A stretch of DNA of 64,000 nt from Candidatus Eiseniibacteriota bacterium (GTDB lineage Bacteria; Joyebacterota; Joyebacteria; Joyebacterales; Joyebacteraceae). The stretch spans positions 41 to 64,040 of the forward strand of contig JAUWCJ010000002.1 in the NCBI GenBank assembly GCA_030609365.1, given 5' to 3'. A program made the translations under genes and the position numbers. Positions 6,587-17,700 of this stretch are shown piece by piece; positions within the stretch are counted from its first letter, which is position 1, and each line of letters begins with the position of its first letter. The notes beneath the pieces are model-generated. The model was given only the letters and a program-made list of their open reading frames with translations, had not been told where the DNA came from and searched no databases.

Positions 6587-7948
6587 CTAGTGAGTGATCT
6601 GCGGCAGGTACACCGCGAAGTCGAAGTCCTCGCTGTTCTCGTCGTCGTGACAGCGCAGACACGTCGCGACCGTTACCTTCCCATACGAACCATCTCGAGC
6701 ATGGTCCGTGGCCTTCCCGTGACAGACCTCGCACTGGACGTTCCTCATGTTGCTCTGCACCCTGGCAGAGCCGTCGAGCGGAAGGTCCATGGAGCAGGTC
6801 GTGTGACATCTCAGACACGCGGGATTGGTGGATTGGTTCGCACGTTCCAGCGTCGCGAACGCCTTAGCATGTCTGGTCTGCGTCCACTGGTCCATCTGAG
6901 GCTGGTGACATCTCTGGCACGTCGCCCCCACGCCGAGGCAGTCCTCCGTGTACGGAACTGCCGCCTGCTCAGCGTCGGCGGCGGGTCTCCTCGCGGCCGC
7001 CCGACGCTTGTTCGCATCCTCTATGGCGACCTTGTGCTCTTTCAGAAGGAGCGCGACGGCCGCGTCCGACGGGACCTTGTCCCCGAGGTCGAACGTGTGA
7101 CCCGAGTACCCGAGGTAGGCGCTCTCCTCGTCGAACTGAAGGCGGTAGTCGCACATGCGCTGACCTTTGTATCCGGGCTGCATCAGGACCGTAGTGCCGA
7201 TCTCGAAAGACTTCGCGGAGTACTGGGCCGCGACCCCGATCAGCATGAAATCGATGCCCGGCATCTCCTCGGCCAGGAGCTTCGACTGCGCGAGTCCCAA
7301 CTGGCTCAGGAGAACGACGTAGTCCGCCTTTTTGTGGAGCTCCTCCACGACTGCCGGGAGGGTCTCCATGGGCTCACCGATGGTCACGCCGAGCTGCTCG
7401 ACCGTGTTGTGAGTCCTGATGTCCGCCTCGGGATCGAGCACTCCAGTGATACCGAACTTCACGCCGCCCCGCTCCAGGATCATGTAGGGTTCGACGAAAA
7501 GCTCGCCTGTCAATTCATCGTAGACGTTGGCCGACACGACCGGCAGGCCGTGGTCGGCGATCAGCCTCTTCAGGTACTCACCGCCCCTGAAGAGGTCGAA
7601 AGCTCCGATGGTCGTCGCCGCACACCCCGACTCCATCATGCCCTTCGCGGTCATCGCGTCGACAAGCTCGGACTCATACGACCTGCGCGTGACGAAACTG
7701 CCTCCGTCGAGATGAAGTATGTATGGGGTCTCCTGTGCTGTCTGGTTGATGTAGCCGGCCCTCCGGACCAGCCCGCCTTTCTGGCCCCCGTGTCAGCCAC
7801 ACGGCTCAAGTTCGCCGCGAGTGTCGGAGACCGCGAGAATGGCGATCTCGAACGGTCCGTCAGGCCGCTCGGCTCGCTGGATCACAGCGCAGCCTGCGGC
7901 GAGCATGACCAACAGCACTACGAGAAGAAGATTTCTGGTGAGAAACAC
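6587..7948 (-). CDS. Lipoprotein fusing a degenerate 5'-nucleotidase/metallophosphatase-like N-domain to a tetraheme cytochrome c C-domain; interrupted by one in-frame TGA at 7793-7795
   Basis: GTG at 7948 with GGAGG 6 nt upstream. It opens a lipoprotein signal (VFLTRNLLLVVLLVMLAAGC) then FEIAILAVSDTRGELEPCG-TGA-HGGQKGGLVRRAGYINQ..., in the same frame as the 355-aa ORF 6587..7654. The whole span is 1362 nt, exactly 454 codons. C-domain has four CxxCH motifs (CQRCH, CLRCH, CEVCH, CLRCH). The N-domain resembles the UshA/5'-NT fold but has lost its metal ligands (DTR for DxH, LDGG for GDxxD, GMME for GNHE). Confidence 0.5.
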
Positions 7949-8167
7949 GGCTGCCTCCTGAAGCCTCCACAGCTGGATGAGAGGGGTACCAACGCAATTT
8001 CCACATACAGATGCTATATGCTAACACGGTCCTCAGGGAGGCGCAAGACAGCTCTCCCCCCACGGGCTCTCCCCCCACGCTCTGCGGCCTCCTGCCACAA
8101 AACGACGGGACCCCGTGGACTTGCCAAGGGGTCCCGTTGAGCGTTCTTTCGTAGCTCGTGCTGCGAA

Positions 8168-8740
8168 CTACCTGTACAGGGCCTTGATGCCGCCCCAGGT
8201 CGCGTCCTCGGTCGGCGAGGCGCCGCAGTCACCGTCGGGGCAAAGACCGCCACCGACACTGCCGTGCGACAGCACGCAGTAGAAGTCGTAGTCCACCGGC
8301 TCGTTGCAGTCCGTGATCCAACGAGGATAGTCCGGGTGGTCCAGAATCTCGATGCAGCACTCACCACCAATGTAGAACAGCGTCAGGTAACCGACGCAAA
8401 CGTCCGGCGGCGCTTCGCAGCCGGTCGACGATACCGTGATACCCGTGAAGATGTCGCCGATCGCCAGACCGCCAGGAAGGATGTTCGTGAAGCTCGGCGG
8501 GGCGAAGACGCCCGGACAACTAACCCCCGGGTCCTGAATCGCAAACGATGCCGACGTAAGACCCTGGTCCAGATCGCCGAAGCAGATGTAGGCGTCGAAG
8601 GTCTCGTACGGAGCCGGCACGTACGCGTGCACCTTGTCCGGCGGATTGAAATCAATGTAAGCACTAACGTTGGGGTTGCCGCCGGCCAGGGCCGGAACCG
8701 CGACCGCCGCGATCATAAGCAGCGTAAGAAAAGTCCTCAT
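8168..8740 (-). CDS. Secreted Cys-rich hypothetical protein, paralog A, ending ...TWGGIKALYR
   Basis: ATG at 8740 with AAGGAG 8 nt upstream (the ORF-track start 8776 lies further 5'). Signal peptide MRTFLTLLMIAAVAVPALAGG. About 45% identical to the protein at 10186..10791 (shared FTN(I/L)LPG.LAIG, LDHP.Y.RW...C.EPVDYD..CV..HG). Conserved C-terminal tail. Confidence 0.7.
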   Translation of the reverse strand: MRTFLTLLMIAAVAVPALAGGNPNVSAYIDFNPPDKVHAYVPAPYETFDAYICFGDLDQGLTSASFAIQDPGVSCPGVFAPPSFTNILPGGLAIGDIFTGITVSSTGCEAPPDVCVGYLTLFYIGGECCIEILDHPDYPRWITDCNEPVDYDFYCVLSHGSVGGGLCPDGDCGASPTEDATWGGIKALYR

Positions 8741-8964
8741 CTGTGCAACTCCTTGCTCTCGACTGATGCGATGCATGATGTCTCACCAACACTCGTCATC
8801 CGAAACAGTAGTGTGGTGCTAACGTGCCATCCTTCCTACTTCTTCCTTCCTACTTCTTGCATTGACCACACGCTCTATCTCAAGTTTGAGTCGGGAAATA
8901 GAACGAAAGCCTCAATGCGTGCACATCAACCTCATCACGACGCCCGTGCAATCCAACTCGGCCG

Positions 8965-9534
8965 CTAGTGACCGAAGTGACCCGCAAACGTAACGAAATC
9001 GAGCGGATTGATCGTTCCGTTCCAGTCGAAGTCGCTGCGCTCGTTCGTGCCGCCAAAGTCGCTGGCGAACGTAACGAAGTCGAGCGGGTCTATCGTGCCG
9101 TCGTCATTGTAGTCGAACGTGTTGCACCACAGCGTATCACTGTCGGTCAGCACGACCGTGTAGATCTGGACGTCGACTGTCAGGGAACCGTACATAATGG
9201 CACCTGTGCCCTGCGCCTCAAACCTAATGGCGCCGCCAGCGTCCGTCTCGGCGTCTACGGCGTTGATCGAGACATTGCCGCTCCCGGCGCCCGTGACCGT
9301 GAAGAAGAAGTTCCCCGACGAGATCCCCTGGATCGGAGTCAGGTCGGTGCGAAGCGCGGTCACAGTGATATACCGGTACGCGGGTCCATCGCCGGCCGGG
9401 CACGTGCTCAGTCCCTTGCCGCCGTTGTCCATCGCTACGTACGAGTTATCTGCATCGGGAATACCAGCTCCAGCGACGGTCGCCATGACCAAGACCAGGC
9501 AACCTGCCAGAACGCCCACCAGTGTTCTTGACAT
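8965..9534 (-). CDS. Secreted protein with two C-terminal dockerin-type calcium-binding repeats
   Basis: Signal peptide (MSRTLVGVLAGCLVLVMATVAGA). Two repeats, DYNDDGTIDPLDFVTFASDFG and DFDWNGTINPLDFVTFAGHFG, match the dockerin motif DxNxDGxIxxxD...F. GGAGG lies 7 nt before the ATG. Confidence 0.7.
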   Translation of the reverse strand: MSRTLVGVLAGCLVLVMATVAGAGIPDADNSYVAMDNGGKGLSTCPAGDGPAYRYITVTALRTDLTPIQGISSGNFFFTVTGAGSGNVSINAVDAETDAGGAIRFEAQGTGAIMYGSLTVDVQIYTVVLTDSDTLWCNTFDYNDDGTIDPLDFVTFASDFGGTNERSDFDWNGTINPLDFVTFAGHFGH

Positions 9535-9697
9535 TTCTTTACCTCCTTCGTACCACTAAACGCGCTGGGATTGCACGCACTTCAGGGCCCATCAATGACA
9601 GACCCACAAAAAGACCTGCGAGGCGTCATCTACCTCCTTTCGAGATAGTCCTGCCCACGGTTGATAATGTCAGTTACCACTTCAGAAACTAGTGCTA

Positions 9698-9726
9698 ATC
9701 TTAGCACAGCTTGGACTTCTTTGCAA
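9698..9726 (-). promoter_or_regulatory. Putative sigma70-type promoter for the dockerin-protein gene; a 16-bp perfect palindrome overlaps the -10
   Basis: On the minus strand: TTGCAA, a 17-nt spacer, then TAAGAT. The palindrome GTGCTAATCTTAGCAC (9692-9707) overlaps the -10, in an AT-richer stretch about 160 nt upstream of the ATG. Confidence 0.35.
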
Positions 9727-10103
9727 GCACATTCTGGAGAGCCGCCTGCGGCCTTCTCCCGGCCCCCGGACTCACAGGCCCCCGAAATCCAGGCTGAGGA
9801 GGGCTGTTTTACCGGATTGCTCCCCGGCTGGCCACCTGGCGATCCCTCCGGATCCACCGTCCACATCCTGTTGGACAGGCCTGGCACGCCCATGGTTGCA
9901 ATAAGTACTCCCACAGACCGGCCACAGTGACCAAACCGGGCCCACCCAAGGGGCGGGCCCGATTCCTCATCCGGTACACCCATTATATCACACTGTGCGC
10001 CCAAGCGCAAGACCTTGAGGCTCCAGCATAGCCCGCACGGCGAACCTCCCGGCAGCTACGCCGCCCAAACTACCCAGCCTGCATCGCTCCGGTCGGTACA
10101 TGC

Positions 10104-14742: not shown

Positions 14743-17700
14743 TCACCCCGAGCTGCCACGTTCGACTCGCTCGACGGCAATCCGTGCCAACTCGCCGTTC
14801 ACGTCCCACTCCTTCTCGAACTCCCCCGCTCCCGCTCCCTCCGTGATGCTAACGGCAAGTGTCTCCGCGGCAACTCGGGACAGGAAGCGCTCCATTGCTG
14901 CCTTCAGTCTGTCGCCGGCCTCGTACGTGACGTTGATCCTGTCCGTCACGTCGAAGCCCGCTTCCTTGCGCATGAACTGGATCTTGTTGATCATCTCGCG
15001 GGCAAACCCCTCGTCCACGAGATCGTCCGTGAGTGTGGTGTCGAGCGCGGCCGCAAGCGTACCGTCGCTCTGTACCGCGAACCCCTCTCGCCCCTTCGTA
15101 CCTATCTCAACGTCGTCCGGCTCGACGACAGCCGCGTCGTCACCGACGCTGACACTGACGTTCTCTCCTGCCGAGAGCCTCGCCACGTCGTCCGCCGGCA
15201 TGCTGCGGATCGCCTCCGCAACCTGGTTGACGTTCTTCCCGTGCTTCGGGCCGAGCGCCGGGAAGATGGGCGAAGCCGTGAGACTCGTCAGCTCCTCGGC
15301 GACCGCCCATTCCATCTCCTTGACGTTCAGCTCCGCCAGAACAAGTTCGCCAAGCGCGATCACGCCGGCGCGGTCGGCCTCCGCAACACCGGCAACCAGG
15401 AGTCTGCCGAGTGGCTGACGGATCTTGATGTTCGACACGTTCCTGGCGGCGCGCCCCAGCACGACCACCGAGCGCGCGATGTCCATCGACGACTCGAGTT
15501 CGCTGTCGATGGCGGATGGCTCCGACTCCGGGAACGCGCACATGTGCACGCTCGAAGGCAGGTCGCCACCTCCGCCGCCGCGCAACCGGCCGTAGATGGC
15601 TTCGGACAGGAAGGGCGCGACCGGCGCCATCGCCGTCATCGTGGCAAGCAGCACCTCGCGCAGCGTCGAATAGGCGGCCTTCTTGTCCTCGTCCATCTCG
15701 CCCCTCCAGAACCTGGCGCGCGACAGACGCACGTACCAGTTGGAGAGGTCCTCAAGGACGAACTGCTGCAGCTTCCTGACCGCCTTCGTGATGTCGTAGC
15801 CTTCCATGTCGGCGGTGACAGCGGCGATCGTTGAGTTACAGCGTGAGACTACCCACCTGTCGATGGTCGGCCTGTCCGCAAGAGGAGCGAAGTGCTCCTC
15901 CGGGTCGTAGCCGTCTATGTTCGCGTAGAGCGCGAAGAAACCGTACGTGTTCCTGAGCGTGTCGAGCACCTTGCTCGCCACTTCCTTGACGCCGCCCACG
16001 TCGAACCTTGTCGGGACCCACGGCGGACTCGTCGACATCAGATACCAGCGGAGCGCGTCGGCGCCCTGTTCCGCCATGATCTCAAAGCTGTCGACGGTGT
16101 TGCCGACCGACTTGCTCATCTTCTTGCCGTGCTCGTCCAGGATCATGTCGTTGACGACGCAACGCTTGAAGGACGACGTCCCGGATATGATGGTCGAGAT
16201 CGCCAGCAGCGAGTAGAACCATCCCCTGGTCTGGTCGACGCCCTCCGCAATGAAGTCCGCCGGGAAGCTCCGTTCGAACTGCTCCACATTCTCGAAGGGC
16301 CAGTGCCACTGCGCGTACGGCATGCTGCCGGTGTCGAACCAGCAGTCTATGACCTCCGGCGTGCGCGTCATTACGCCCCCGCACTCGCCGCACGTGAGCT
16401 TCACATCGTCGACGGAGGGCTTGTGAAGGTCGACCTCGTCGGGAACCGTGCTCCCGCCGCGCTCGCGTAGCTCCGCGATGCTGCCGATGGCGTCCTGCTG
16501 CTCGCACTTCTCGCAGATCCAGATGTTCAGAGGCGTGCCCCAGTAGCGGTCGCGCGAAACGGCCCAGTCGACGTTGTTCTCGAGCCAGTCGCCGAGCCTG
16601 TTGGCGCCGATCTCCTTGGGATGCCACTTGATCTTTGCGTTATTCTCGATCATCTCACTCTTGAACTGCGTCGTCCGCACGTACCACGAATGCCGCGCGT
16701 AGTACACGAGCGGCGAGTCGCACCGCCAGCAGAACGGATAGGTGTGCGTGATGGTGGCGCTCTTGTAGAGGAGGCCGCGCTTCTCCAGGTCCTCGGTGAT
16801 GAGCGGGTCGGCGTCCTTGATGAACATCCCGGCCCACGGCTTCACATCGGACGTGAAGCTGCCCGTGTCGTCGACGGGCTGGACGAATGGCAGGTCGTGC
16901 TCGACGCCAACGCGGTAGTCGTCCTCGCCGAAGGCCGGCGCCGTGTGGACGATGCCCGTGCCGTCCTCAAGCGTGACGAAGTCCCCGCCGATCACGCACC
17001 AGGCCTTCTTGTCGACCGGAACGTATGTGTAGAGCGGCTCGTACTCCTTGCCGATGAGGTCGAGGCCCATGTAGCTCTCCAGGATCTCATACTCCTCTTC
17101 CAGCACGGACAGGAGCGCCTCGGCCAGTATGAGGTTCTCGCCCCCCGACTTCACCTTGACGTAGCTCTCGGTGGGCGCGACGGCAAGCGCCACGTTGGAT
17201 ATCAGCGTCCAGGGCGTCGTCGTCCACACGAGGAAGGACGTGTCCGGGTCTTCCTTGAGCTTCATCCTGATGAAGACCGACGGATCGACCGCGTCCCTGT
17301 AGCCTTGGGCGACCTCGTGGCTCGACAGCGGCGTCCCGCAGCGCGGGCAGTACGGCAGGATCTTGTGACCCTTGTAGATGAGGTCGCGGTCCCACATCAG
17401 CTTGAGGATGTGCCAGACGGATTCTACGTAGTCGTTGGTGCACGTGACGTAAGGGTCGGACATGTCGACCCAGTAGCCCATGCGGCGGGTCAGCTGCTCC
17501 CACTCGTCCTTGTACGTGAACACGCTGTGCAGGCACTTCTCGGTGAACTCGGCGACGCCGTACTTCTCGATGTCTTCCTTGCTCTCGAGGTTGAGCTGCT
17601 TCTCGACCCCGATCTCGACCGGCAGGCCGTGCGTGTCCCACCCGGCCTTCCGCTCGACGAGGAAACCCCTCATCGTCTTGTAGCGGCAGATGGCGTCCTT

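Follow-up and report, generated by a model that had tools for sequence, protein, structure and literature searches.

A single TGA stands in frame, 51 codons after the start, within a gene on the minus strand of a 64,000-nt stretch of Candidatus Eiseniibacteriota DNA (contig JAUWCJ010000002.1 of assembly GCA_030609365.1, positions 41 to 64,040; the whole stretch is called the window below), and the question raised by this locus is whether the codon is read as selenocysteine (Sec), marks a nonsense mutation or results from an assembly error. These options were offered by a first-pass annotation made from the sequence alone. The frame opens with a GTG at 7948-7946, runs for exactly 454 codons and closes with a TAG at 6589-6587; re-reading it confirmed the annotated span and showed that the TGA at 7795-7793 (codon 52), in the context ...SDTRGELEPCG-TGA-HGGQKGGLVRRAGYINQ, is the sole internal stop. 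With a probability of roughly 0.93, this TGA encodes Sec in a member of the known UshA-like 'PCGU' (CxU) selenoprotein family. This reading, favoured among the options offered, is carried by a column that holds either TGA or Cys codons in 139 homologs and by a conserved hairpin in the RNA.

A search of 5.8 billion proteins returned approximately 70 homologs at 50-91% identity, each of which spans just 78-85% of the query, and every one of their gene calls begins past the TGA column. These public orthologs (P0001-P0070) are annotated as proteins of 350-386 amino acids (aa), with called downstream starts that differ from one ortholog to another, and a separate mini-gene is called for the ~50 residues at the N-terminus. 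In the orthologous loci L001 and L002 (75% and 53% identity), a ~50-aa 'gene' (9791-9946 and 9797-9949, respectively) abuts the cytochrome gene, with the same architecture and the same TGA as in the window, and translation through the stop gives ELEPCG-TGA-HGGQ[KR]GGLVRRAGYINQ, the TGA being at the identical position. The ~70 split ortholog annotations are a systematic mis-annotation of a selenoprotein, and the window gene and its public orthologs, at present divided into a ~50-aa fragment and a truncated cytochrome, should be joined as one.

Distant full-length homologs (P0071, P0073 and P0074) have PCGC at the TGA column, and only P0107 and P0108 were gained from another profile search aimed at Cys forms of full length. 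Scanning of one-genome-per-species and metagenome collections provided 160 further loci from many phyla, among which 89 hits of a motif script had TGA at the column and 30 had TGC or TGT, and a relaxed pattern found the motif in 34 of the remaining loci, always as C-G-(TGA/TGC/TGT). Overall, TGA, TGC or TGT occupies the column in 165 loci of these collections. Aligned with MAFFT, 139 distinct full-length translations comprised 100 TGA and 39 Cys forms, with C50, G51 and position 52 being 100% conserved; this sample is skewed to relatives of the query, so that its 72% Sec share does not estimate that of the whole family. Comparison of homologs at this column, which the first-pass annotation had put forward as a check, gave Cys codons or TGA and never TGG or another ordinary codon, and homology continues across both flanks of the TGA, which persists down to ~25% identity. 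A TGA that returns at one column in 100 distinct homologs is far beyond chance.

The TGA forms are labelled as Eisenbacteria, Krumholzibacteriia, Acidobacteriota, Latescibacterota, Rokuibacteriota, Myxococcales and Desulfobacterota-type lineages, and Cys forms predominate in Nitrospinota, Nitrospirota, Gammaproteobacteria and Gemmatimonadota. The two forms also occur side by side among close relatives, as in SPCG-U-HTPKGG (L104, L106, L108, L111 and L120) versus SPCGCHTPKGG (L116 and L125), and in YYRPCG-U-H (L024, L028 and L107) versus YYRPCGC (L004), and such close pairs show repeated switches between Sec and Cys.

Two contigs carry two family copies in tandem, one of them with a Cys form and a Sec form (L023, 2831 and 3986) and the other with two Sec forms (L090, 3148 and 4570), and several Cys-form relatives (L045, L051 and L079, of ~930 aa, as well as L046, L058, L061 and L128) have a ~500-aa N-terminal extension or a long C-terminal extension past the tetraheme domain.

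Membership in the PCGU family is indicated by profile searches, in which the best NCBIfam match of the window protein is NF041198 'UshA_like_PCGU', UshA-like (seleno)protein (E 1.6e-81), with a score of 282.2 bits if residue 52 is Cys and 274.5 bits if it is X, at a curated cutoff of 275; the L002 ortholog with X scores 300.8 bits. The profile has 519 positions covering the UshA-like part and the CxxCH part, and the match consists of two stretches, in which window residues 14-274 align at positions 3-269 and the C-terminal region of relatives at ~347-518. In the window, EPCG-TGA supplies the P-C-G-U (or P-C-G-C) motif that follows the first beta-strand in the UshA-like domain. The next-best NCBIfam family is SoxB (TIGR04486), at 61 bits versus a cutoff of 550, and neither ExtKL (NF040886) nor octaheme tetrathionate reductase (TIGR04315) is among the NCBIfam matches at E values up to 0.01. 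As in the NF041198 family, the window gene and its relatives combine the P-C-G-U motif with a UshA-like N-domain, a C-terminal CxxCH region and the occurrence of Sec and Cys forms at one column. The differences from the family listings lie in the host lineage, which is Eisenbacteria-like, and in the labels of the public orthologs, which are truncated entries named 'multiheme c-type cytochrome' or 'hypothetical protein'.

The family was described as 'COG0737, UshA-like, CxU' in the 2008 Global Ocean Sampling selenoproteome, with 76 Sec sequences (PMC2398784), and it reappears in reviews of 2022 and 2026 (PMC9312934, PMC13188914). It is listed with precisely the CxU motif (PMC2398784, PMC13188914), in agreement with the CxU-like arrangement that had been recognized at the first pass, and none of these surveys assigns it a function (PMC2398784, PMC9312934, PMC13188914). 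Thus, the window gene, whose host lineage is Eisenbacteria-like, belongs to a known kind, as a member with a borderline score; a search combining Eisenbacteria and selenocysteine returned no papers from the literature library searched.

The other main line of evidence is a hairpin at 7773-7753, which is a well-supported selenocysteine insertion sequence (SECIS) and folds at a minimum free energy (MFE) of -13.7 kcal/mol (z -2.75). In the bacterial SECIS (bSECIS) model, a stem of 4-16 bp carries a loop of 3-9 nt, G occurs in the first two positions of the loop, 16-37 nt separate the loop from the UGA and the MFE is at most -7.5 kcal/mol (PMC13188914). The window hairpin agrees with 4/4 of these criteria, with a GGA loop, a stem of 9 bp, a UGA-loop spacing of 28 nt and the MFE given above, and in its 3-nt loop starting with GG, stem length and spacing it also resembles the bacterial SECIS consensus (bSECISearch; Escherichia coli fdhF type).

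Across the family, a perfect stem of at least 7 bp occurs in 69 of 88 distinct TGA forms versus 6 of 29 Cys forms, and the longest perfect stem averages 7.5 bp in TGA forms, 5.5 bp in Cys forms and 5.9 bp in synonymously recoded sequences. The loops of the 88 TGA forms include GGA (32), GGC (18) and GGUCUG or GUCU (18), 46 of them have a loop beginning at +32 and 25 one beginning at +22 or +23, and the Arg-Arg codons are CGG-AGG or CGG-CGG in 56. In an ungapped codon-anchored alignment, 79.6% of cells are paired in the hairpin, compared with 30-51% in slid registers and 71.8 ± 0.9 in column shuffles, 0/500 of which reached the observed value. The hairpin alignment contains 63 double-sided changes, with compensatory changes at synonymous positions: pair 15-27, for instance, is GC in 36 sequences and CG in 21, the third position of a Leu codon covarying with that of an Ala codon, and in the window's own clade an Ala to Val replacement (GCC to GUC) retains the pair as G·U. 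In L116, L125 and L004, Cys forms that stand next to close relatives of the Sec form, the hairpin has decayed.

The hairpin is built from codons for G-L-V-R-R-A-G, and since it is also translated as this peptide, the stretch is constrained both as RNA and as protein. Unlike the bacterial SECIS consensus, it lies wholly inside the codons of a conserved peptide (GGLARRA) that is already present in Sec-less relatives, which makes it a clean case of an RNA signal encoded in the codons of a pre-existing conserved peptide and visible through synonymous-site covariation.

A different stem-loop had been pointed out at the first pass as correctly placed for a SECIS. Its stem, GGCCAG/CUGGUC (7786-7781 with 7771-7766), does exist, folding at -6.4 kcal/mol, yet as a SECIS it departs from three of the four bSECIS criteria (a loop that starts with AA, a distance of 12 nt from the UGA and the low stability), and its 5' arm is conserved just in the closest orthologs. 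The two hairpins compete, the CUGGUC arm being common to both, and the conserved element is the one at 7773-7753. A second SECIS design was seen at the same position of the gene in, for example, L032, L052, L121, L138 and L152, namely GCUUGGC-GGUCUG-GCCAGGC, with a loop at +22 on Gly-Leu codons, whereas the GGA or GGC loop at +32 falls on the Arg-Arg codons; over all TGA sequences this design reaches 65.6% paired, so that it is weakly supported family-wide and fits a subset. Its GGUCUG loop resembles the apical loop of E. coli fdhF.

The strongest competing explanation, although improbable, is that the TGA terminates, leaving a 51-residue lipopeptide and a separately initiated cytochrome, or that Sec insertion is so inefficient that termination dominates. 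Sec insertion in bacteria is known to compete with termination, and GTG, ATG and TTG codons downstream allow gene callers to find the 350-386-aa open reading frames (ORFs). Nevertheless, the Cys-form homologs are single continuous ORFs of the same architecture, the called downstream starts vary among the orthologs, and the invariant C50-G51 would be cut off from the rest of its domain; moreover, a product begun after the TGA would have no signal peptide, and hence no export or maturation of a c-type cytochrome would be possible.

A nonsense mutation, by which the gene would be a pseudogene or recently broken, is highly improbable. It would account for one in-frame stop after 51 codons, the point at which gene callers split all orthologs, but it does not accommodate the same TGA in 100 distinct sequences from many phyla with protein-level conservation on both sides, nor Cys codons at the column in the remaining homologs and a structured element that co-occurs with the TGA. 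Equally little credence is given to a sequencing or assembly error, that is, a miscalled base in TGC, TGT or TGG. In its favour, several genes of the related contig L001 (ENA contig_24556, 2.2 Mb) look split, among them RuvX and a Fer4/CCG protein (e.g. 450-1255 and 15837-17295), which suggests long-read assembly indel errors unrelated to the conserved TGA. Against it, the identical codon and column recur in independent JGI, ENA, NCBI and Logan assemblies, where a recurrent miscall is impossible, and neither a second selenoprotein nor any other TGA-split gene was found in the window, in which same-frame junctions join unrelated neighbours (biotin ligase/thymidine kinase).

Reassignment of TGA to Trp or Gly, as in genetic codes 4 and 25, has nothing in favour besides the in-frame TGA and is practically negligible, as TGA ends 11/33 ORFs of high GC content at third codon positions (GC3) in the window, conserved genes such as that for isoleucyl-tRNA synthetase included, and the homolog column is Cys, not Trp or Gly. 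In the window, which has 64% GC, these 33 high-GC3 ORFs end in TAG (21), TGA (11) and TAA (1), a preference for TAG that is unusual for a GC-rich bacterium.

Several observations weigh against Sec at codon 52. No tRNA-Sec was found with ARAGORN, and no SelA, SelB or SelD by tblastn with the E. coli proteins, in the 64-kb window and 1.74 Mb of related loci; the Sec machinery of the genome is assumed, which is the main gap in the argument. The MFE of the 63-nt downstream region is only weakly better than that of synonymous-recoded controls (mean z -0.55), the hairpin signal residing in position and shape and not in bulk stability, and no Rfam family matched the hairpin either at gathering thresholds over the window or in a permissive scan of 7650-7850. 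In addition, the NF041198 score of the window protein sits at the curated cutoff.

If codon 52 is read as Sec, the product is a two-domain protein whose parts can be interpreted separately. The first-pass description of a degenerate 5'-nucleotidase-like domain fused to a tetraheme cytochrome c is borne out by Pfam, NCBIfam, PDB and Foldseek matches, and the lipoprotein signal is predicted from inspection: the N-terminus, VFLTRNLLLVVLLVMLAAGC, has LAAGC after a hydrophobic stretch, as judged by eye, and LAAGC or IAAGC is also found in L001 and L002, with the lipobox missing in some family members such as P0071. The GTG start at 7948 was likewise found as annotated, although the spacer between it and the GGAGG is 5 nt and not 6. 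Coordinates of all parts are compiled in Table 1.

Table 1. Coordinates, in the window, of the gene with the in-frame TGA, its parts and its downstream neighbour.
Feature	Position	Strand	Remarks
GGAGG, Shine-Dalgarno-like	7954..7958	minus	5 nt 5' of GTG start; read from sequence
Complete selenoprotein gene (predicted)	6587..7948	minus	453 codons + TAG stop, reading through UGA at codon 52
Predicted signal peptide, lipobox-like LAAGC	7889..7948	minus	Cys20 (7891-7889) is the predicted lipidation site
Cys50 codon (TGT)	7799..7801	minus	opens C-G-U motif; invariant in 139/139 distinct family members
Predicted selenocysteine codon UGA, residue 52	7793..7795	minus	homolog column TGA 100, TGC/TGT 39, of 139
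Proposed SECIS hairpin GGCUGGUCC-GGA-GGGCCGGCU	7753..7773	minus	9 bp stem, loop 7764-7762
UshA/SoxB-like (calcineurin-type metallophosphatase fold) domain, degenerate dimetal site	6959..7858	minus	residues ~31-330
Tetraheme c-type cytochrome domain	6590..6931	minus	residues ~340-453; Pfam PF13435
CxxCH motifs x4	6919-6905, 6817-6803, 6733-6719, 6661-6647	minus	all invariant across family
Downstream neighbour: Peptidase_C25 with propeptide and FlgD_ig domains, 1245 aa	2757..6491	minus	

The N-domain has the fold of 5'-nucleotidases and SoxB, which were the PDB sequence matches (E 5e-7 to 1e-5). An AlphaFold2 model of a Cys-form proxy, P0071 (28% identical; predicted local distance difference test 82.7, predicted TM-score 0.83), matched in Foldseek the 5'-nucleotidases 3ive, 2z1a and CD73 (E ~1e-20) and SoxB 2wdc (1.4e-16). 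As in UshA, 5'-nucleotidases and CD73 (1ush, 2z1a, 3ive), the calcineurin-type metallophosphatase fold and the long linker helix are aligned (TM ~0.5 over ~330 columns), and motif I is still followed by GG(L)ARRA. Unlike in these enzymes, with their metal-ligand motifs DxH, GD, GNHE, H and GH, four of the five motifs are destroyed, the replacements relative to the Thermus thermophilus 5'-nucleotidase 2z1a being NDTH to SDTR, DAGD to DGGS, GNHEF to GAFDL and SHLG to SQLG, and the motif His residues are 53-55% conserved family-wide. The earlier statement that all metal ligands are lost is therefore nearly right, with the first Asp (D42) as the lone survivor in the alignment to 2z1a. The C-terminal substrate-binding domain (PF02872) gave no match, residues 340-453 being the cytochrome domain. 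Because the metal-ligand motifs are destroyed and the PF02872 domain is replaced, phosphoesterase activity would not be expected of the window protein.

By profile, SoxB (TIGR04486; PDB 2wdc) is the nearest characterized relative of the N-domain, matching the family profile at E ~1e-27, and it shares the fold and a periplasmic, sulfur-cycle-type character. The window protein lacks the dimanganese ligands and the 5'-nucleotidase C-terminal domain of SoxB, and SoxB in turn lacks the C-G-U motif and the four hemes. Family-wide, the only invariant residues of the N-domain are C50, G51, U/C52, G58, G59 and G83, with R62, R63 and N141 nearly so. Since its sole invariant residues are these, the N-domain most likely carries the catalytic centre, and its proposed role as a passive binding or scaffold domain appears unlikely.

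In the C-terminal part, Pfam Cytochrome_C554 (PF13435) matches at 47.9 bits versus a cutoff of 20.8 (E 2.6e-12). The domain shares four CxxCH motifs with the cytochrome c554 type, from which it differs by its fusion to a UshA-like domain and by its 15.6 bits on the Nitrosomonas c554/CycA family NF043010, against a cutoff of 400. Conservation extends beyond the CxxCH motifs to H360, H416 and H453 and to a VQCExCHG block at heme 3, so that three conserved extra His serve four hemes, and neither a Met nor a further His is conserved. In cytochrome c554, one heme is five-coordinate.

Comparison strongly supports a first step in which, with the ribosome at UGA52, the hairpin at 7773-7753 would recruit SelB-GTP-Sec-tRNA(Sec) for Sec insertion and would then be unwound and translated in its turn. 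In a second step, judging from the N-terminal sequence, the protein would be exported, lipidated at Cys20 and anchored in the membrane facing the periplasm. The C50-G51-U52 loop directly follows the former metal-binding motif I, and in 5'-nucleotidases and UshA that loop position is the inter-domain cleft facing the C-terminal substrate-binding domain. In a third step, the Cys/Sec pair would most likely cycle between the selenolate/thiol state and a selenenylsulfide or a substrate-bridged Se-S adduct, and electrons would pass singly along the heme chain. Such heme-coupled Cys/Sec redox catalysis is given about even odds.

An oxidoreductase is the simplest reading because the C-domain facing the C-G-U loop has been replaced by a heme wire. 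We infer a periplasmic membrane-anchored oxidoreductase that may act on a sulfur or selenium compound such as a polysulfide, persulfide, thiosulfonate or disulfide, each particular substrate being much less likely than heme-coupled Cys/Sec catalysis as such. A substrate of this kind is suggested by the SoxB ancestry of the N-domain, by the existence of other multiheme selenoproteins and by the precedent of MccSep (PMC13510729). MccSep of Geobacter sulfurreducens (GSU2937-2936; PDB 9WT8-9WTC) is a pentaheme selenoprotein polysulfide reductase with a His/Cys heme (PMC13510729). Like the window protein, it is a periplasmic multiheme c-type cytochrome with one Sec, with Sec and Cys variants and a history of mis-annotation as split genes, and it has an essential partner Cys for its Sec (PMC13510729), just as the window family pairs the invariant C50 with U52. 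It differs in having five hemes instead of four, no UshA-like domain, and C239 and U325 far apart instead of in a C-x-U arrangement, and no sequence or fold match between MccSep and the window protein was obtained, although MccSep entries may postdate the PDB copies that were searched.

A bolder version, which is doubtful and is offered only tentatively, is that C50 ligates or abuts a heme lacking its sixth ligand, with Sec52 alongside, to form a His/Cys-heme and Sec catalytic centre. C50 and U52 become candidate heme ligands because three conserved His serve four hemes and these two residues are the other invariant candidates. The hypothesis rests on the invariance of the C-G-U loop, the exchange of the nucleotide-binding domain for four hemes and the presence of one heme without a sixth ligand of its own. 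If true, a counterpart of the site at which MccSep reduces polysulfide would have arisen by convergence on the gutted scaffold of a SoxB/5'-nucleotidase, and the family would represent a new class of periplasmic chalcogen reductases using heme and selenium, a widespread one spanning Eisenbacteria, Krumholzibacteriota, Acidobacteriota, Latescibacterota, Myxococcota and Desulfobacterota. For a family listed since at least 2008 with no function assigned the present hypothesis is concrete and testable, and it comes when MccSep has only recently become the first polysulfide reductase of the heme-selenium type to be characterized.

Two points count against the functional proposal: the structural model was made from a Cys-form proxy of low identity to the window protein, and comparison of the neighbourhoods of family loci gave no family-wide conserved partner gene. 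Synteny is lineage-specific, involving LptD (upstream in 24 loci), an RNase_T exonuclease and, in Eisenbacteria-type loci, a C25 peptidase, and a DsbA-like protein adjoins the gene in 9 Cys-form loci. In Nitrospinota-type Cys-form loci, a DsbA-like thiol:disulfide oxidoreductase (CGHC) lies directly downstream (e.g. L081, 5054-5677), a neighbour that fits a periplasmic thiol redox role.

In the window itself, the adjacent Peptidase_C25 gene is probably not a functional part of the system, its synteny being restricted to Eisenbacteria-type loci (L001, L002 and L086). Directly upstream of the selenoprotein gene lie three minus-strand ORFs without a Pfam match (8171-8776, 8968-9534 and 9633-10010), and the same place in L001 and L002 is occupied by four to six unannotated genes of similar size. 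Further downstream, also on the minus strand, a FAD_binding_4 protein (1866-2747) and a Fer4/CCG iron-sulfur protein (472-1866) form a GlcD/GlcF-like pair, and the order C25 peptidase, FAD_binding_4, Fer4/CCG is shared by L001, L002 and L086 and not by more distant family members.

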